Source of the DNA: Patescibacteria group bacterium
Lineage (GTDB): Bacteria > Patescibacteriota > Gracilibacteria > UM-FILTER-43-11
Assembly (NCBI GenBank): GCA_018813295.1
Contig: JAHJBZ010000002.1
Span: forward strand, 1,935-65,934
Reading direction: 5' to 3'
Length of the DNA: 64,000 bases
Under the pieces are notes generated by a model. The model ran no database searches and was not told the DNA's origin. It worked only from the letters and a program-made list of their open reading frames with translations. The position numbers and the translations under genes were made by a program. This document shows, in pieces, positions 4,599 to 57,215 of this stretch; the first letter of the stretch is position 1, and each line of letters starts with the position of its first letter.

Positions 4599-4782
4599 TT
4601 GATATTTAAGCCAAAATTTGGTATAATGTATAGATAATATCTACTTACGTGTGGACCAGGGCTAGCGCCCGTAGACCAGCTTCGCGTTGACCTATGCTAG
4701 CGCCTGTGGAATCTACATGAAATAGGTCCACACGAAGTAGGTCTACGCCGTAGGCAGATCGGTCCACAATGAAGTTAGAAAA
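4599..4782 (+). promoter_or_regulatory. Promoter (TTGATA-17-TGgTATAAT) plus ~150-nt structured leader cassette, copy 1
   Basis: -35 TTGATA is at 4599-4604 and the extended -10 TGGTATAAT at 4619-4627. Direct words GTGGACC/GTAGACC/GTTGACC follow, then their complements GGTCCAC/GGTCTAC/GGTCCAC, ending GAAGTTAGAAAAATG. A near-colinear copy is at 20934-21111. Confidence 0.55.
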
Positions 4783-6825
4783 ATGTTTAAAAAAATTGCA
4801 AAATTCATAGGTCTTGGCATTGCTGTGCTTGCAGTAACCGCATTATTTATGCGGCAAGAGTGGCTTATGAGCTTTCAATTAGGTATGCAAAATAAATTTT
4901 ACGACTATGATTTGCCAAGCAGCGAAATAGTGGTTGTGGCAATTGACGAAAAGAGTCTGGAGGAAGATCGATTAGGATTATTTGGACAATGGAAGAGGTC
5001 TTACTACGCAGACGCAATCGAAATATTAAATGATGCTGATGCGGCTGTAGTTGGAATAGACGTTACATTTCCGGACCAGTCATCACATGGTTCAGGCGAT
5101 GATGCAGTGCTGGCCAATGTTTTAGAAAAATACGACAACGTGGTTATGGCCTCCCGTTATTACTTTGAGGACGGAATGAAGGTAATTCAATGGCCCAACA
5201 ACACTTTAATGTCCGCAGATCCGAGTTTAGGATGGATTAATGTGCAGCTTGATGGAGATGGTTTTGTTAGAAGCTTGCCTCTTTTTGCCGCATCTAAGAA
5301 TGAGACTATTGAAGCATTTTCACTTGCCCTTTCTCGCATTTATTTAAATGTTGACCCTGTTGATTATCGTATTGTGGGTGATGAATTTAATTTTTCGGAC
5401 AATATTGTAATACCAACTATTACGCAACGTGATTCCCAGACACAGCAGGATGTTCATTCGATGTACATAAATTATTTTGCGGAACCAAATCGTTTTACGC
5501 ATATTTCTTTCTCGGACGTGCTTGATGGAAATTTTATTGATAAACGCGGTAACCCGATTGATTTTACGGATAAAATTGTATTAATTGGCCCTACTGCAAT
5601 TGATTTGCAAGACGATTATTTATCTCCTGTCAGCCAAGGCGTGCGTATGCCCGGTGTTGAGATCCATGCAAATAATATTCAGACAATAATTACAAAGCAA
5701 TTTTTGCGCGACCAGTCGACTTTAAGCTTGTGGATTACGCTGCTTTCTTTTTTGGCGATAAACATCATTTTATTCTCATTTCTTAAAGTTCGTTTCGCTA
5801 TTCCGCTTGTTCTTGCTGAGGTTTTTGGAGTGCTGGTTGCAGGGATTGTCGGTTATGAGTTCAGGATTTTTGTGAATGTAATTTATCCGATTCTGATAAT
5901 CTTTTTGAGTTTTATCGGAACGTATCTGGTGCGCTTTATTATGGAGCAGAAAGATCGTAAATTTATTGAAGGTGCATTTGGGCATTATGTAAACGAATCA
6001 GTTGTTAAACAAATTCTCCAGAATCCGAATATGCTCGAGCTCGGTGGAGCTAAGAGGGATATAAGTGTGTTCTTTTCGGATATAGCCGGATTCACCACTA
6101 TTTCGGAAGGTATGGAACCGGGAGAACTTGTTTCGTTTCTGAATGAATACTTAAAGGAAATGACGGAGATTATTTTAAAGCATGGCGGAACTCTGGATAA
6201 ATATGAGGGCGATGCAATTATGGCGTTTTGGAATGCACCACTCGCCCAGCACGATCATGCACTGAATACCTGTTTGGCAGCGCTGGAGAGTCAGGAGCAG
6301 TTAGTTAAACTGCGTAAGAAATGGGCAAGTGAAGGAAAGCCGGAAATTCGTGTTCGCATTGGCATTAACACCGGTGATGCTGTAGTTGGCAATATGGGCT
6401 CTGAGGATCGTTTTGATTACACGGCTATTGGAGATAATGTGAATCTGGCCTCCAGGCTTGAGGGCATTAATAAGCAATATGGGACCGGTTTGATTATTTC
6501 CGAATTCACCTTTAAAGAAATTAAAGATCATTTGATTTGCCGTGAACTTGACCTTATCCGGGTAAAAGGTAAAAACGAACCCGTGAGAATTTATGAACTC
6601 ATTAGCAAAAAAGACGCTGCAAAGAAAGATGTAACTGAAAAATTAACTAAGTTTGCAGAAGCGCTTGCGGATTACAGGAAGAAGAACTTTTTGGCTGCTA
6701 AGAAGAAGTTTGAGGAAATTAAGGATGATTTACCTTCACAGGTTTTTGCGAAAAGATGTGATAAGTTTATGGAAAACCCACCAGCTGGAGATTGGGATGG
6801 AGTGTATACGTTTACGACGAAATAA
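4783..6825 (+). CDS. CHASE2 sensor-domain class III adenylate/guanylate cyclase
   Basis: 680 aa with an N-terminal TM helix, a periplasmic CHASE2-like region and three TM helices. The cyclase homology domain carries FFSDIAGFTTISE, YEGDAIMAFWNAP, RIGINTGDAVVGNMGS and GDNVNLASRLE. Confidence 0.9.
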   Translation: MFKKIAKFIGLGIAVLAVTALFMRQEWLMSFQLGMQNKFYDYDLPSSEIVVVAIDEKSLEEDRLGLFGQWKRSYYADAIEILNDADAAVVGIDVTFPDQSSHGSGDDAVLANVLEKYDNVVMASRYYFEDGMKVIQWPNNTLMSADPSLGWINVQLDGDGFVRSLPLFAASKNETIEAFSLALSRIYLNVDPVDYRIVGDEFNFSDNIVIPTITQRDSQTQQDVHSMYINYFAEPNRFTHISFSDVLDGNFIDKRGNPIDFTDKIVLIGPTAIDLQDDYLSPVSQGVRMPGVEIHANNIQTIITKQFLRDQSTLSLWITLLSFLAINIILFSFLKVRFAIPLVLAEVFGVLVAGIVGYEFRIFVNVIYPILIIFLSFIGTYLVRFIMEQKDRKFIEGAFGHYVNESVVKQILQNPNMLELGGAKRDISVFFSDIAGFTTISEGMEPGELVSFLNEYLKEMTEIILKHGGTLDKYEGDAIMAFWNAPLAQHDHALNTCLAALESQEQLVKLRKKWASEGKPEIRVRIGINTGDAVVGNMGSEDRFDYTAIGDNVNLASRLEGINKQYGTGLIISEFTFKEIKDHLICRELDLIRVKGKNEPVRIYELISKKDAAKKDVTEKLTKFAEALADYRKKNFLAAKKKFEEIKDDLPSQVFAKRCDKFMENPPAGDWDGVYTFTTK

Positions 6826-14939: not shown

Positions 14940-15051
14940 AATTTTTTAATCTTGAATTTTGAATCTTTTAATTGAATATTAATCTAATAATTATAGCATA
15001 AATAAACAGGAATTGCAAATTGCTTTAGTGGATGATTTTTGGTAATGTAAT

Positions 15052-15168
15052 TGTCTGAACTGTGATTTATGTGATTAAATGATTTTTATGATTTACCATG
15101 CATAAGCTTTGTGCATTCATAAAAAATCTTGTCCATCATTACAATCATAAAAAATCATAGTTCAGACA
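15052..15168. repeat. TGTCTGAAC...GTTCAGACA long hairpin element, copy 1
   Basis: The terminal inverted repeat is tgtctgaactgtgatt...aatcatagttcagaca, and the arms are built from TGATT/AATCA words. Further copies are at 38651-38770 and 39521-39629, with a solo left arm at 37920-37962. Confidence 0.65.
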
Positions 15169-20933: not shown

Positions 20934-21111
20934 TTGAGTTTTAGCTGAAAATTTGGTATAATATATAGATAATATTCTGCTACGCGTGGACCTGGGCTAA
21001 CGCCCGTGGATCTAACCTACGGTTGTAGACCTGCTGACGCGTGGAATCCACACGAAGTAGGTCCACATGAAATAGGTCAACGCGAAGCAGGTCAACAACG
21101 AAGTTAGAAAT
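20934..21111 (+). promoter_or_regulatory. Promoter (TTGAGT-17-TGgTATAAT) plus structured leader cassette, copy 2
   Basis: aaaatttggtataatatatagataatat..gcgtggacctgggctaacgcccgtgga...taggtccacatgaaataggtcaacgcgaagcaggtcaacaacgaagttagaaatATG. It is colinear with 4599-4782. Confidence 0.55.
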
Positions 21112-21585: not shown

Positions 21586-22275
21586 TTATTCGATATTCAA
21601 TAAATCATTAACCATTTCAAGTGTAACTTCGGTTAGATCGGGGAGAACAGTATCTGCGCCGGCACTTTTGAGTTCGTCGTGTCCTTCCAGGCCGGTAGTG
21701 ACTCCGACAACTTTCATTCCTGCGCCTTTGGCGGAAAGTACACCATTTGTTGAGTCCTCAAAAACAAGGGAGTTTTTGGGAGCGATTTTAAAAAACTTAG
21801 CTGTTATTTCGTAAATTTCAGGATTTGGTTTGGAATGTTTTACCCCATCTGTTCCTGTAATTTTTTTGAAATAATTTCCTATTCCTAACTGCTTTAACTC
21901 TTGTTCAACGACGTAATCTGCATTACTGGAAACGCAGGCAATATTTTCAAAATGTTCTGCTATCAATTCAACCGCTTCCTTCGCACCAGGCAGTAGCGGG
22001 AGATGGACTCCTAATTTTTCTTTTCTGTAATCTTCTAATGCTTTATCGATTTGTTCTTGTGTTATCCCCTTCTCTTCAATTTCGTCTTTCCAGAACATAT
22101 CAAACCGTTCTTTAGCGCTGATGGATAAGTTTTTAGGATCACTTTTAAATGGCTCTGCGTTTAAACCGAGATCTCTTTTAACAATATCGAAAAAAATACG
22201 ATTAGCAATTCGCATTGAACTTATCAATACCCCGTCCATGTCGAAGCAAATGAGGTGGGTTTTGTTTTTGTTCAT
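21586..22275 (-). CDS. HAD-superfamily hydrolase (beta-phosphoglucomutase-like subfamily)
   Basis: 229 aa with motif I FDMDGVLI, motif II SSN and motif III/IV K..FEDSTNGVLSAKGAG. Confidence 0.85.
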   Translation of the reverse strand: MNKNKTHLICFDMDGVLISSMRIANRIFFDIVKRDLGLNAEPFKSDPKNLSISAKERFDMFWKDEIEEKGITQEQIDKALEDYRKEKLGVHLPLLPGAKEAVELIAEHFENIACVSSNADYVVEQELKQLGIGNYFKKITGTDGVKHSKPNPEIYEITAKFFKIAPKNSLVFEDSTNGVLSAKGAGMKVVGVTTGLEGHDELKSAGADTVLPDLTEVTLEMVNDLLNIE

Positions 22276-22296: not shown

Positions 22297-22422
22297 TTTT
22301 CGCCACGCTGTGGATGCGGCTAGCGCCTGTGGATGCGTCCCGATTACAGGACTGTGGAGTAATAAGTCCACAGCGAAGCGAAATCCACAGCCCGATAGGG
22401 CGAATCCACAGCATAGCGAAAA
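22297..22422. repeat. MITE/REP-like hairpin element TTTTCGC..CTGTGGAT ... ATCCACAG..GCGAAAA, copy 1
   Basis: Three direct CTGTGGA(T/G) words are followed by three inverted TCCACAG words, with an internal cccgatagggcg. It fills the space between the HAD start codon and the FmdB stop codon exactly. Further copies are at 44254-44382 (inverted) and 56791-56923. Confidence 0.7.
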
Positions 22423-22650
22423 TCATTTTTTATTATGCGGACAATCTTTACACTTATCATCCGAACATCCACCGCCTGATTCCGATTTTTTTGTAAATCC
22501 TTCACTTTTATATTGGACTCCAGGAGCTTCGAGTAATTTTTCTGTTTTTGGATGACCGCATTCCAGGCATTTTTGGTCTTCATGACCTGGGGGAAGTAAT
22601 TTTTCGAAACAGTGGCCGCATTCCAAGCATTTGAATTTATAGTTGGGCAT
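22423..22650 (-). CDS. FmdB-family zinc-ribbon protein
   Basis: 75 aa with an MPNYKFKCLECGHCFE..CLECGH double CxxC motif. Confidence 0.75.
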   Translation of the reverse strand: MPNYKFKCLECGHCFEKLLPPGHEDQKCLECGHPKTEKLLEAPGVQYKSEGFTKKSESGGGCSDDKCKDCPHNKK

Positions 22651-43101: not shown

Positions 43102-44253
43102 ATGATAAATATAATTAAAAACAATAGGGGTGTTTCACTTCCACTGGTTATAGGTCTGGTGATGCTGCTGATGATTGCTTCAGTTGGGGTGAATGAATTG
43201 ATTTTAAGAACACTTCGTTCCGCTCATCAAATTGAAGCGGCGGATCGGGCATATTTTGCTGCTGAGGCGGGTATTGAAGATGCTCTTTATGAACTCACCC
43301 CTCATTTTGCAGGATATGAAACGCCTGATTTGGATAGCGCTGACGTGAGAAGTAATAATTTTGGCGGAAGTGTTCAGTGGGATAACAATTGGGCAATTGA
43401 AAGTATAAGCGATAGTGACACATTTGATGGTTATTTTTATTCAAAGCAAAAATTAATCATTAGTTTGTATAACGATGAAGCGGGTGACACAGTAAAAGCC
43501 GCGAATTTTATTAATACAGACCCAGCAGATATTAGCACTCTTGGCGTAGGTTCATTTTTAATGACTTTCCGCGTTCCTTATGACCAGGAAGATCAATATT
43601 CTACGCCCTTTTTAAACAACGGCCTTGTTATTGATAATGATAGCGATGGACGAATTAATGAGGATGGGCCTGAGAACAATGGTTCCTGCCCGGGGGTCGT
43701 CGGCACTTCCAGGGATGCGGATTGTGACAGAAGGGAAGATGAGGATAGTAATCAGGATCCTGTAATTTACTGGAAGATTATAGATGATGAAGGGCGGTAT
43801 TTAGAGCCTAAAACGGGTTGTTTTACCGGCGTAGGAACTCCTGAGGATCCGCAGGGCAGCGAAATGTGCGAAAAGGACTTTATAAATACCGGCACTGATA
43901 TATACATAGAATTAAATGATTCGGATTTAGGGGTAAATCAAGACGGAGATGAGGTGTCGATTGGAACATTTATAACCAATGGTTATGACAATAGATCTAC
44001 GAAAAGTAAACTTCAGATTGAATTCCAAATCGTCGCTCCTCTGGAGCAGGCATATGAGGATAATGGAGTTAAGGAAATAATCATTCCTTACCTTGAATAC
44101 ACGGTAGAAACCGGAAGTGATTATGTTCCGCTTCCTAGATTTACCATTAAATCAGATGGTTATTACAAGGATTTTAAACAATCAATAACCACAACGATTA
44201 CGCCGAAGACGATTGCGCCGTTGTTTGACTTTACGATTATTCAGCAGCAATAA
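43102..44253 (+). CDS. PilX-like minor pilin with an Asp-rich calcium-binding-like insert
   Basis: 383 aa. NRGVSLPLVIGLVMLLMIASVGV..ADRAYFAAEAGIEDALYEL is a PilX N-terminal pattern. An internal DNDSDGRINEDG..DADCDRREDEDSNQD segment is present. Confidence 0.65.
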   Translation: MINIIKNNRGVSLPLVIGLVMLLMIASVGVNELILRTLRSAHQIEAADRAYFAAEAGIEDALYELTPHFAGYETPDLDSADVRSNNFGGSVQWDNNWAIESISDSDTFDGYFYSKQKLIISLYNDEAGDTVKAANFINTDPADISTLGVGSFLMTFRVPYDQEDQYSTPFLNNGLVIDNDSDGRINEDGPENNGSCPGVVGTSRDADCDRREDEDSNQDPVIYWKIIDDEGRYLEPKTGCFTGVGTPEDPQGSEMCEKDFINTGTDIYIELNDSDLGVNQDGDEVSIGTFITNGYDNRSTKSKLQIEFQIVAPLEQAYEDNGVKEIIIPYLEYTVETGSDYVPLPRFTIKSDGYYKDFKQSITTTITPKTIAPLFDFTIIQQQ

Positions 44254-44382
44254 TTTTCGCTTCGCTGTAGATTCGCCCTATCGGGCGTGGATGCGCTAAC
44301 GCTGTGGTTTTTTTGGAATTCCCTAAAACATCCACAGCGAAGCGAATCCACAGGCGAAGCCGCATCCACAGCGAAGCGAAAA
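44254..44382. repeat. MITE/REP-like hairpin element TTTTCGC..CTGTGGAT family, copy 2 (inverted orientation)
   Basis: ttttcgcttcgctgtagattcgccctatcgggcgtggat...atccacagcgaagcgaaaa. The internal cgccctatcggg is the reverse complement of the cccgatagggcg seen in copies 1 and 3. The element abuts the leuS stop codon. Confidence 0.7.
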
Positions 44383-46881
44383 TTATTTAACAACTATATT
44401 CACCAACTTCCCCGGAATATATATTTCCTTAATTATTTTCTTGCCATTGATATATCGTTTGATGGTTTCGTCTTTAAGGGCGGCGGATATGGCTTCATCT
44501 TTCGTGATATCTGTAGAAACCTCCTTTTTTGCCCGCACTTTTCCGTTGACGGAAAAAACCAATTCAAATGTGTTGTCGACTACTAATTCTGGATCAAATT
44601 CTGGCCACTTTTCATAGGCTATGGTTTTTTTATGACCTAATTTTTCCCAAATTTCTTCGGCTAAGTGAGGTGCGAATGGGGATAAAATTATGGCGAATTG
44701 TTTCATCAATGGCTTGCTTACATCTTTTCCTTTTTGGACTTCGTTGGCCAGGATCATCATTTGAGAAAGCGCGGTGTTAAAGCGGAAATTCTCTATATCT
44801 TCACCTACTTTTTTGATGGTTTTGTGGAGCAAGCGTTCGAGTTCTTCATCTGGTTTTTTGTTGATCACTTTCATTTCTTCGACAATACGATAGACTTTTT
44901 GCAAAAAGCGGAAGCTGCCCTCGATAGATTTTGTACTCCATGGTTTTACGGCTTCGAATGGCCCCATAAACATTTCATAAGCGCGGAGGGTGTCGGCACC
45001 GTATTTCTTTATTACATCATCTGGATTAATTACGTTGCCACGGGATTTACTCATTTTTTCTCCATCTTCGCCAAGGATAAGACCTTGGTTCATTAATTTT
45101 TGAAAAGGTTCTTTGTCTTTTACAAATTCCAGATCAAATAAAACCTTATGCCAAAAGCGGGCATAAAGCAGGTGGAGTACGGCATGTTCAGCGCCGCCAA
45201 CATATAAATCAACGTTCATCCAATAATCTTGATCTGCAATACTAATAAATCTTTTGCTATCTTTTGGGCTGAGGTAGCGGAGATAATACCAGCAACTACC
45301 AGCCCATTGCGGCATTGTGTTGGTTTCGCGTTTTGCAGGACCACTGCATTTTGGGCATTCGGTATTCACCCATTCATCTATGCCGGCAAGCGGTGATTCG
45401 CCAGTTCCGGTTGGTTCATATTTTTTAACGTCGGGGAGAAGCAGTGGGAGTTCGCTTTCATCAAGGGGTAAAGTCCCACAATGGTTACAGTGGACAACTG
45501 GAATTGGTTCTCCCCAGTAACGCTGACGGGAAAAAACCCAATCCTTTAATTTATAATTTACCGCACCTTCCCCTACTCCTTTTTCCTCAAGCCAGCGAAT
45601 AACTTCGTAGCGAGCCTTATCCTCTTCGTCATCGCTGGACCACAGGCCATTGAATTGAGCGGATTGCATCAAATAGCCGTAAGTGATGTAAGGAAGGTAA
45701 TTGTGCTCCTTCATATAAGCCTCAACTACTTTTTCATCTTCCGAGGAGAGTCTTGGTTTTATTTCTTTTGGGTTACCCTCCTCATCCGTGAATTTTTTAG
45801 GGCGTACAACAACACGCACGGGAAGACCATATTTCTTTGCAAATTCGTAATCCCTTTCATCATGAGCCGGCACACACATAATCGCGCCTGTACCGTAGCT
45901 TGCGAGTACGTAGTCGGCTATCCATATGGGTATTTCTTCGTTATTTACGGGATTGATGGCATAAGCGCCTGTAAATTGACCTGATTTTTCCTTATTTAGA
46001 TCTGTGCGCTCAAGATCGCTCTTCATCATCGCAAACTCCTTGTACTTTTCGACCTCTTTTTTGTATTCATTGGTTGTAATTTTGTAGACCAAAGGGTGTT
46101 CGGGCGAAAGCACCATATATGTTGCACCGAATAATGTATCTGGACGGGTTGTGTATACGCGTATTTTTTTCTCTGAATCCTTAACTTTAAAATCCACATC
46201 AGCTCCGTAACTCTTGCCGATCCAGTTGCGCTGCATAATTTTGATTGGTTCCGGCCAATCCACATCGTGTAAATCCTCTAGCAGACGATCGGCATATTCG
46301 GTGATTTTTAAAACCCACTGGCGAAGTAGTTTTTTAGTAGTCTGCTCTCCGCACCTTTCACATTTTCCGTCGACTACTTCTTCATTCGCAAGGCCTGTTT
46401 TGCAGCTTGGGCACCAGTTAATTGGTAATTCTGACTCATATGCAAGCCCCTTATTGTAAATCTGCAAAAATATCCACTGTGTCCATTTGTAGTAGTCGGG
46501 ATCTGTTGTATCCACTTCCCTATCCCAATCGTAGCTAAAGCCAATGGACTTAATTTGCTTTTTGAAGATTTTAATGTTTTCTTCCGTTACTTCGCGCGGG
46601 TGGCGGCCGGTTTTAATAGCGTAATTCTCTGCCGGCAGTCCAAAAGCATCCCAGCCCATTGGATGGAGGACGTTATAGCCTTTCATTCTTTTATAGCGGG
46701 AGATTATATCGGTAGCTGTATACCCCTCAGGATGGCCAACATGAAGCCCTGCCCCGCTTGGATACGGGAACATATCCAGAATATAGAATTTTTCTTTCTT
46801 TTTATCTAAATCTGCTTTAAAAGTTTTGTTTCTTTCCCAATATTTTTGCCATTTTGGTTCTATCTTGCTAGGATCGTACAT
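44383..46881 (-). CDS. leuS: Leucine--tRNA ligase
   Basis: 832 aa with [14 protein letters not shown] (HIGH), KMSKS and a CP1 editing domain. Confidence 0.97.
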
Positions 46882-56200: not shown

Positions 56201-56830
56201 ATGGAATATATTCTCCAGCTCGACATCCATGGATACCCCCTACTAATGATTCCATGGAATATTATTTTGGCATTGGTGCCTTGCGCCATCGTCTACTATT
56301 TGGCGAAAGGGGTTGGTAAGAAAAAATGGAAACAGCTAAAAAATGACAGGTTTGCTTTTATGCTGATCTTTTTGATCTGGCTTTTTGTGCTGCCTAACAC
56401 TGCTTATCTTTTTATGATACCGAGGCATTTGGTGAATTATTGTGACAATCTTAGTATGTACCGAGTGTGTCTGGATGGATCGTGGTTGGTGATGTTCTTT
56501 TTTGCATATGCGCTTATCGGACTGCCGACTTTTTATTATGGACTTAATAAAATGGTTCGTATTTTTAAGACGATGTGTGGTGATTTGGCCGCGAAACTTT
56601 TGCCTATTTTTACGATCCCATTAATATCGATAGCTGTAATGTTTGGGCTGTATTCGCGTTATAACAGCTGGGACGTAGTGTTTCGGCCGAATTGTTTATT
56701 GAAGACTGTTGCTTCGTATTTTTCTGAGACCCATCTTTTGATTGATTTTGTTGTATTTACTCTGGGGCTTTATTTGATTTACTATGTAACTCGCTACGCT
56801 GTGGATGCGTCCCGATTACGGGACTGTTGA
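56201..56830 (+). CDS. DUF1361-like integral membrane protein; the last ~13 codons are supplied by a repeat element
   Basis: 209 aa and multi-TM with an LPNTAYLF..RHL motif. The C-terminal TRYAVDASRLRDC* is encoded by the left arm of the CTGTGGAT element. Confidence 0.55.
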   Translation: MEYILQLDIHGYPLLMIPWNIILALVPCAIVYYLAKGVGKKKWKQLKNDRFAFMLIFLIWLFVLPNTAYLFMIPRHLVNYCDNLSMYRVCLDGSWLVMFFFAYALIGLPTFYYGLNKMVRIFKTMCGDLAAKLLPIFTIPLISIAVMFGLYSRYNSWDVVFRPNCLLKTVASYFSETHLLIDFVVFTLGLYLIYYVTRYAVDASRLRDC

Positions 56831-56923
56831 TTCGGCTAACGCCTGTGGCTGAATTCAGTATACTTATTACATCCACAGCGTAGCGCATACATGCCCGATA
56901 GGGCGAATCCACAGCGTAGCGAA
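56791..56923. repeat. MITE/REP-like hairpin element (CTGTGGAT family), copy 3
   Basis: tcgctacgctgtggatgcgtcccgattacgggactgt...cccgatagggcgaatccacagcgtagcgaaa. It shares ctgtggatgcgtcccgattac.ggactgt with copy 1. Confidence 0.7.
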
Positions 56924-56939
56924 ATAAAATAGGAGAACC

Positions 56940-57215
56940 ATGATAAGAGTTCACTTAAAAATCAGAGGCAAAGTACAAGGCGTGTTCTTCCGCGCCCATA
57001 CTCAGGAAAAAGCTGAGAAGCTTGGTGATATAACTGGCTGGGTTGCGAATAATGCGGATGGAACTGTTGATGTGGTGGCAGAGGGGCCGGAGAATAAAAT
57101 TAATGATTTAATTGATTGGTGCCATAGTGGCCCGAGTACTTCTCAGGTAGAAAAAGTTGAGGTTGAAAAATTGACTTATAATGGCGAGTTTGATAGCTTT
57201 GGTATCCGGTACTGA
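56940..57215 (+). CDS. acyP: Acylphosphatase
   Basis: 91 aa with VHLKIRGKVQGVFFR and GWV.N..DG.V motifs. Confidence 0.9.
   Translation: MIRVHLKIRGKVQGVFFRAHTQEKAEKLGDITGWVANNADGTVDVVAEGPENKINDLIDWCHSGPSTSQVEKVEVEKLTYNGEFDSFGIRY

Follow-up and report, generated by a model that had tools for sequence, protein, structure and literature searches.

The window analysed here, a stretch of 64,000 nucleotides, corresponds to C62:1935-65934 in a 1.53-Mb assembly of 87 contigs with 38% G+C (genome label G000). Three copies of a palindromic repeat lie in the window: copy 1 between a Zn-ribbon gene and a HAD hydrolase gene, copy 2 between two convergent genes, and copy 3 at the junction of a DUF1361 gene and an acylphosphatase gene (Table 1). 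The original prediction had placed three copies with shared termini and internal blocks at these coordinates, and all of these were present. The copy at 44254 had been read as inverted, and its CGCCCTATCGGG block is indeed located on the opposite arm.

Table 1. Positions of the palindromic elements, their neighbouring genes and related features. Numbers without a prefix are window positions; C numbers denote contigs.
Feature	Position	Strand	Remarks
Copy 1, 126 bp	22297..22422		words, termini, fold
Copy 1, outer-to-inner words (CTGTGGAG)	22308-22315, 22327-22334, 22352-22359		
Copy 1, inverted words	22366-22373, 22383-22390, 22404-22411		loop TAATAA
HAD hydrolase gene	21586..22275	-	downstream of copy 1
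Zn-ribbon (PF09723) gene	22423..22650	-	TGA stop abuts copy 1 terminus
Copy 2, 129 bp	44254..44382		fills entire gap between convergent stops
Convergent genes bounding copy 2	43102-44253; 44383-46881	+; -	
Copy 3, 133 bp	56791..56923		long AT-rich loop, two degenerate words
DUF1361 gene	56201..56830	+	last ~10 residues (AVDASRLRDC) and TGA from copy 3
Acylphosphatase gene	56940..57215	+	immediately 3' of copy 3
Window copies in contig numbering	C62:24242, C62:46199, C62:58733		
Fourth copy on contig C62	C62:70924		
Family copies	C1:86015; C23:2951; C55:21542; C61:42154; C72:44182		
Family copy split across contig end	C2:44062 + C29:60		one locus
Family copies, contig C52	C52:6604, C52:10053		
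Family copies, contig C65	C65:5086, C65:12263, C65:27884, C65:41824		
Linker hairpin repertoire, part 1			GC-TTC-GC; GC-TAC-GC; GCCC-TATC-GGGC
Linker hairpin repertoire, part 2			GGC-TAAC-GCC; GTCCCG-ATTA-CGGGAC; GCG-CTAA-CGC
IVP cassette	L150		between small gene and tuf
IVP cassette	G023:C43 (L177)		between orthologues of G000 C13 and C82 genes
IVP cassette	L313		beside FG-GAP protein gene
IVP cassette	L314		after tRNA synthetase gene
Shared promoter/leader sites of RAYT and IVP genes	G000:C65:44780-44884, C17, C1:16500, C8:25540-25618; L150:470-551		

Each arm of the element is a tandem array of about three modules, and the second arm is the inverse array. In a module, the word CTGTGGAT is followed by G or T and by one of a limited set of small GC hairpins. 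The element runs from TTTCGCYWCG-CTGTGGAT to ATCCACAG-CGWRGCGAAA, and the terminal inverted repeats of the copies read TTTCGCYWCGCTGTGGAT and ATCCACAGCGWRGCGAAA. The word occurs 11 times in the window against 1.5 times expected, a count that none of 100 shuffles reached. Three words per arm were found as predicted, but the predicted spacing of 20 to 23 bp is only a rough value, as the start-to-start distances measured were 16 (20 times), 17 (6 times), 19 (11 times), 21 (9 times), and 25 nt (10 times). Each of these values is set by the linker hairpin between the words, and the spacing is thus not fixed at about two helical turns, as had been proposed, but varies with the linker. The linkers are self-complementary, with a mean best stem of 2.92 bp versus 1.94 ± 0.13 bp, above that of every shuffle, and one hairpin type has a compensatory variant in which GCCC/GGGC is replaced by GTCC/GGAC. 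The two arms of one copy hold different hairpins; for example, GCCCTATCGGGC usually stands opposite GGCTAACGCC. Folding of the copies as RNA and DNA, proposed with the original prediction as a check, gave strong hairpins (z of -7 to -10): the predicted RNA folds range from -65.7 to -74.7 kcal/mol (z -7.1 to -10.2), and the predicted DNA fold has -36.9 kcal/mol (z -7.6). In the predicted fold-backs, the words pair with each other and the mini-hairpins extrude as branches.

A search for further copies by BLASTN and word clustering, likewise proposed at the outset, identified 16 full copies in G000, with lengths of 100 to 133 bp (about 120 bases) and pairwise identities of 74 to 97%. A two-word pattern scan of the genome contigs was too loose and returned only single chance matches, an Rfam scan of the window found one tRNA and no family matching the element, and a literature search found no description of such an element type or arrangement. 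The element is discrete, since pairwise similarity between copies ends 10 to 15 nt beyond the outermost words. The best pairs are 92 to 97% identical, and those with unrelated flanks are 92 to 94% identical, AT-rich loops included. Copy 1 matches G000:C29:60 with 92% identity over 136 nt in inverted orientation, and copy 3 matches G000:C62:70924 with 94% identity over 138 nt. In two pairs, C65:5086/12263 and C52:6604/10053, the similarity runs on into the start of the neighbouring gene, and these are therefore segmental duplications, not transpositions. The copies C72:44182 and C65:41824 have termini in direct orientation and an inner segment in inverted orientation, their identity being 93.4% with the inner part flipped versus 82.6% in direct comparison, which points to recombination or template switching between inverted words as the event that flips the core. 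Module exchange and flipping of the inner segment between inverted words are shown to be ways in which the copies evolve.

The 16 copies occupy 12 tandem and 4 convergent spacers and no divergent spacer. By a crude ORF map, divergent spacers make up 24% of the G000 spacers of at least 80 nt, and the chance of finding none among 16 copies is approximately 0.01 to 0.07; the copies avoid promoter-only (divergent) spacers. Almost all copies have one terminus directly next to T(A/G)A, which as a rule is the stop of the gene upstream, and in most copies this stop codon lies 10 to 12 nt from the first word, i.e., at the terminus. An exact fit between the codons of neighbouring genes had been claimed for two copies. 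This is correct for copy 2, which is flanked by TAA on one side and TTA on the other, two convergent stops, but copy 1 abuts the Zn-ribbon stop and leaves 21 nt before the HAD ATG, where a native-like spacer is kept. Copy 3, inside the DUF1361 ORF, immediately follows a TAA that is out of frame (GTA ACT) and replaces the native tail with AVDASRLRDC and a stop. The claim that it provides the last 13 codons and the TGA of this ORF (56201-56830) was borne out, and about 10 of these residues are element-derived, as an alignment of 12 homologues shows ...YYVTRY to be native. It is the only 1 of the 16 copies that overlaps an ORF. TA or TAA can be read at many copy ends, not at all of them; the flanks are about 80% A+T, so TA at these ends is uninformative, and no consistent target-site duplication was readable in the AT-rich flanks of the copies.

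The order of DUF1361, acylphosphatase, and FGase genes is kept in relatives, with 68 to 72% protein identity. In one relative (L132), the DUF1361 and acylphosphatase genes overlap at ATGA, which is an empty site, and DUF1361 ends with ...TRYLLKKI. In another (L131), this junction is occupied by a palindrome from another family, that of TGTCTGAAC, which likewise donates C-terminal codons. The Zn-ribbon/HAD junction is empty in G008, where the spacer is 18 nt, and it is filled by other word palindromes in G020 and G015. The search for empty sites that accompanied the original prediction was thus successful at two junctions. With both orthologous junctions empty or differently occupied in relatives, the copies are insertions and the loci are not ordinary conserved spacers; the copies were inserted independently of the neighbouring genes. 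We found no strain-level insertion polymorphism, copy 1 being identical in two sister MAG assemblies, and an exact-protein look-up with the acylphosphatase gave no match. Taken together, these results show the element to be a discrete, dispersed, inserted palindrome built of REP-like modules.

Longer relatives of the element carry a gene. One of them, at G000:C8:25473-26046, has inverted arms that combine three CTGTGGA words with hairpins of varying type, and these arms enclose a gene of 123 aa whose product matches PF05635 (23S_rRNA_IVP, a four-helix-bundle protein) with 78 bits. The closest relative of known structure is 2GSC (E = 1.4e-4). The IVP gene is the sole ORF of such cassettes, and the C8 cassette is a diverged relative of the gene-less copies within G000. 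Proteins 79 to 87% identical to the C8 IVP led to four further cassettes with readable DNA (Table 1). The five C8-type IVP genes occupy five different sites, and at each of them the gene is enclosed by arms of CTGTGG(A/T) words that follow one and the same grammar. Two of these cassettes, L150 and L313, start with TATTTCG.../AAATTTCGCTTCGCTGTGGAT and end with ATCCACAGCGTCAGCGAAAA, which are the termini of the gene-less copies. L150 was the only relevant match in a three-word metagenome scan, the rest being mostly unrelated tandem repeats. In copy 2, the central sequence CTGTGGTTTTTTTGGAATTCCCTAAAACATCCACAG (CTGTGGTTTTTTT...TAAAAC) is similar to the inner ends of IVP cassettes, as would be left by an internal deletion. 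No transposase domain was found in the IVP cassettes. IVP genes lie inside inverted word arms in 4 of 5 testable cases in G000 and in about 19 of 30 cases in family relatives, and members of the C63-type IVP clade are almost always flanked, at varied sites, by inverted arms of heptamers such as GGACTAAG, GGATTCAG, or GTAAGCA. A long inverted repeat encloses the PF05635 ORF in the gene-bearing relatives; the three window copies have no ORF. All copies and cassettes lie between protein-coding genes and not in an rRNA helix.

Within the family, the element and the IVP clade also occur in the same genomes. Of the 31 family genomes, G000 (24 matches) and G023 (31 matches) are the only ones in which a three-word GTGG(AT) pattern is frequent, and only these two have the C8-type IVP clade (E values of 9e-81 and 4e-65), the next-best family match having an E value of 2.5e-41. 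G015, a member of the same genus as G023, has neither word arrays nor the C8-type clade. In 401 sampled genomes of the class, G000 and G023 were the only ones in which matches to a stricter three-GTGGAT pattern were dispersed and lay on both strands, and the other genomes with multiple matches showed one-strand tandem repeats among the loci listed. The modules of G023 share the grammar and have a mostly different hairpin repertoire that is also significantly self-complementary.

The element shares its termini and grammar with IVP cassettes that have moved between sites, and these shared features make it a MITE-like relative of an IVS-type cassette and not a relative of Correia elements or RPEs. 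The original description of a dispersed, codon-donating palindrome present in both orientations was accurate, but the likeness to Correia and Rickettsia elements that came with it gives way to the closer likeness to an IVS-type cassette. On balance, the three window copies are probably gene-less, MITE-like members of a palindromic cassette family that has IVP-bearing relatives, and we infer that the gene-less copies are miniature derivatives of the IVP cassette. The absence of a transposase gene from the IVP cassette speaks against such a derivation, and IVP genes might instead prefer the loops of pre-existing palindromes, which would make the miniatures targets and not derivatives. As members of a mobile cassette family, the copies would spread by copy-and-paste of a folded single strand, catalysed in trans. 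RAYT-type Y1/HUH transposases insert without duplications, 3' of short motifs, and one of the many enzymes of this type in G000 would be the best candidate; the linked IVP protein could be an alternative or accessory mobilising factor. Once inserted, the element would be co-transcribed with the upstream gene to give a long branched hairpin, a putative intercistronic or 3'-end processing and stability structure of the RNase III type, comparable to rRNA intervening sequences.

RAYT-like genes, whole or fragmentary, number at least 12 in G000, and two of these score above the NCBIfam cut-off (NF047646, 94 and 91 bits). A C65-type family (NF047646, 94 bits) accounts for about 5 copies or fragments and a C8:18391-type family for about 6, and two singletons, C62:81672 and C18:43115, are each flanked by their own GC-rich REPs. 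The former (C62:81672-81959; NF047646, 91 bits), approximately 16 kb past the end of the window, has REPs on both sides, composed of CGACGGAGC and hairpins of which CCCGCTGAGCGGG is an example; it is a textbook REPtron and belongs to another family. Two C65-type copies, at G000:C1:15887-16507 and C55:11620-12254, are decaying, one with a TGA at a conserved Trp codon and another with four stops. The RAYTs of G000 behave like multicopy insertion sequences, not like single-copy domesticated genes. The gene at G000:C8:18391-19026 encodes a 211-aa RAYT-like protein (HVH motif, WQARFYDHIIR; NF047646, 59 bits). It lies between an 88-aa gene and tuf, the site of the L150 IVP cassette, and a one-sided array of GTGGCTCG words precedes the gene. 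A promoter, TTGAC-N17-TGATATAAA, and a conserved leader, TTTTGTATTTAA(A/G)TGAAT..., are common to RAYT and IVP genes (Table 1); the leader is conserved upstream of RAYT homologues across the family as well and may represent a common regulatory RNA or operator. A genome-wide search for the TTAATGAATAA leader motif was too noisy in the AT-rich G000.

An alternative is a classical REP/BIME/REPIN system, in which each word with its hairpin is a REP, the element is a 3 + 3 cluster mobilised by a RAYT encoded elsewhere, and the IVP gene is occasional cargo. The short GTGG head beside a GC hairpin resembles the GT(A/G)G-plus-palindrome design of REPs (heads GTAG/GTGG), the clustered inverted units are extragenic and form a larger hairpin without a clear duplication, and their mosaic structure is like that of BIMEs. 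Such a system is further favoured by the RAYT-like copies or fragments in G000, by the two singletons with REPs of their own, and by the RAYT that stands behind the GTGGCTCG array at L150's IVP site with the same promoter and leader. However, the search for a cognate RAYT proposed with the original prediction, while it did find RAYT genes, found none flanked by element words: no CTGTGGAT or other GTGGAT modules flank any of the approximately 12 G000 copies or approximately 45 homologues in relatives, four RAYT types having been covered. Neither multicopy RAYT family co-occurs specifically with the element; RAYT families are widespread in the family, and the element is confined to 2 of 31 genomes. 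The hairpin stems of 2 to 6 bp are far shorter than those of typical REPs, the copy number is only 16, the units are arranged as three direct and three inverted ones and not as doublets, and the RAYTs are multicopy and decaying and not single-copy. We regard a REP/BIME/REPIN system as unlikely. We give a lower probability to an ordinary MITE of an insertion sequence with a DDE transposase, for example an IS630/Tc1-like one with TA duplication and 19- to 20-bp terminal inverted repeats. The element is indeed small, multicopy, and ORF-less with terminal inverted repeats, and the flanks of many copies allow a reading as TA...TA or TAA...TAA, but TA carries no information in flanks of this composition and is missing at copy 1, C29, and C61. 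Moreover, its only longer relatives encode IVP; a transposase is not encoded by any longer element that has these termini.

A non-mobile, locally evolved structured spacer, with the likeness between copies due to gene conversion or to selection for a terminating or stabilising hairpin, appears more improbable still. Most spacers of the window are inverted arrays of short words, and two copy pairs lie within segmental duplications, as such a spacer would allow. Against it stand the sharp common boundaries, the 92 to 94% identity, AT-rich loops included, between copies with unrelated flanks, the orthologous sites that are empty or differently occupied, and the same termini around IVP genes in other organisms. 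The hairpin-plus-U-tract signature of a terminator is absent as well. An intrinsic bidirectional terminator was rejected because the T-run lies 5' and the A-run 3' of the hairpin (5'-TTTT...AAAA-3'), which is the reversed polarity. Terminator and promoter consensus scans found no whole-element terminator and no promoter inside any element, and their matches occurred at the rate seen in shuffles; the sole terminator match within an element was in copy 3, where one linker hairpin (56809-56824) has a weak T tail. Least probable of all, and very much so, is an array of protein-binding sites on duplex DNA, for example for DnaA titration. The original prediction had noted a resemblance to such an array, and there are six similarly spaced 8-nt words per element; ATCCACA is the core of the DnaA box TTATCCACA, matching 7 of 9 positions. 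In this most obvious concrete form, however, the proposal found no support, as the element word (G/A)(A/C)ATCCACAG is without the TT of the box, TTWTNCACA has no match in the dnaA contig, and no box clusters were found genome-wide. The region upstream of dnaA uses TTTTTCAC words, and related families in G000 and its relatives have the same architecture with entirely different words. Upstream of dnaA, at G000:C44:34995-35217, there are three TTTTTCAC(C/T) words with GC hairpins and no canonical boxes, and these words may be a local form of the DnaA box.

Several known systems resemble a mobile palindromic cassette family with gene-less members in one respect or another. In 23S rRNA intervening sequences of the Leptospira/Coxiella type, the ORF encodes an S23p or 23S_rRNA_IVP protein of PF05635. 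The cassettes are similar to these in having a PF05635 gene in the loop of a long inverted repeat, a sporadic distribution, and evidence of movement between sites. They differ in lying between protein-coding genes and not in rRNA helices, in having arms of short words and mini-hairpins, and in being accompanied by a 16-copy population of gene-less miniatures; RNase III excision is only putative for them. Like MITEs, the element is shorter than 300 bp, non-coding, and multicopy, with terminal inverted repeats and with termini in common with a longer gene-bearing element (L150, L313), but that longer element encodes no recognised transposase. Correia elements of Neisseria and RPEs of Rickettsia are similar in their length of 100 to 150 bp, terminal inverted repeats, lack of an ORF, strong hairpin, intergenic location in co-transcribed regions, and occasional gift of codons to a host gene. 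Correia elements (CREE) have specific 26-bp inverted repeats, a TA duplication, and an IHF site; the termini found here presumably bear no resemblance to those repeats, and a TA duplication is not demonstrable for the element. RPEs typically lie in frame inside genes, in contrast to the 1 of 16 copies that overlaps an ORF here, and have no sequence relation to the element. BOX elements of Streptococcus pneumoniae also consist of a few subunits in variable number and are stably structured, intergenic, and co-transcribed; the element differs in its modules of 16 to 25 nt (word plus mini-hairpin) arranged as a palindrome and has no boxA/B/C homology.

IVP ORFs in rRNA insertions of CPR bacteria have been reported as uncharacterised (PMC11270868). 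What is new here is that a clade of PF05635 is linked to a gene-less palindrome population in the spacers of protein-coding genes. PF05635 is a large family of uncharacterised proteins that has been met mainly in rRNA intervening sequences, and the cassettes, with their clade-specific arms and miniatures, offer a testable handle on what these proteins do and on the movement of intervening sequences. A bolder proposal, which we consider speculative and rather doubtful, is that PF05635 proteins are more than passive cargo and are the specific trans-acting partners of word-plus-hairpin palindromes, in their binding, processing, or copying. Each IVP clade would then keep its own miniatures, the C8 type with CTGTGGAT and the C63 type with GGACTAAG-like heptamers, and this partnership would have given rise both to rRNA intervening sequences and to the spacers of Peregrinibacteria that are filled with hairpins. 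The element helps to explain the hairpin-filled intergenic spacers of the streamlined CPR genome G000, and such insertions can rewrite the C termini of host proteins; in annotation, the element is a marker of gene ends and accounts for unusual C-terminal extensions.

A reverse-transcriptase partner for the IVP protein (compare Avd in DGRs) was considered and rejected, since the only reverse transcriptase gene is set among defence-island genes, with no IVP gene there. This cluster, at G000:C48:36146-46268, includes a large type IIG-like methyltransferase/restriction protein, a Cas4-like PD-(D/E)XK protein, a 418-aa reverse transcriptase, a metacaspase-like protein, and a TIR-like protein.

Other palindromes and word arrays were seen along the way. 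The TGTCTGAAC palindrome at L131:655-750 has an arm that is identical in 34 of 35 positions to window positions 15050-15084, unlike the DUF1361 protein of L131, which is only about 72% identical; this suggests that the TGTCTGAAC palindrome family was recently transferred or is strongly homogenised. Related palindromes of GTGGAC/GTCCAC words with small linkers, about 79% identical, occur at 4599-4785 and 20934-21111 of the window. Both lie directly between a near-consensus promoter (TTGATA or TTGAGT, N17, TATAAT) and the next ATG and would thus form a hairpin 5' UTR. Tandem arrays of 3 to 4 copies of a 16-nt unit, GGGTCCACAGCGAAGC, were found at G000:C15:13190-13229 and C72:24146-24185; the unit combines the element word with a GCGAAGC mini-hairpin in one orientation only, and the arrays are apparently inside long ORFs. 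The IVP protein encoded at G000:C1:39668-39976 has a C-terminal tail, NPNDPNIPSNPNTPN, whose codons lie in the right word arm of the cassette that carries the gene.
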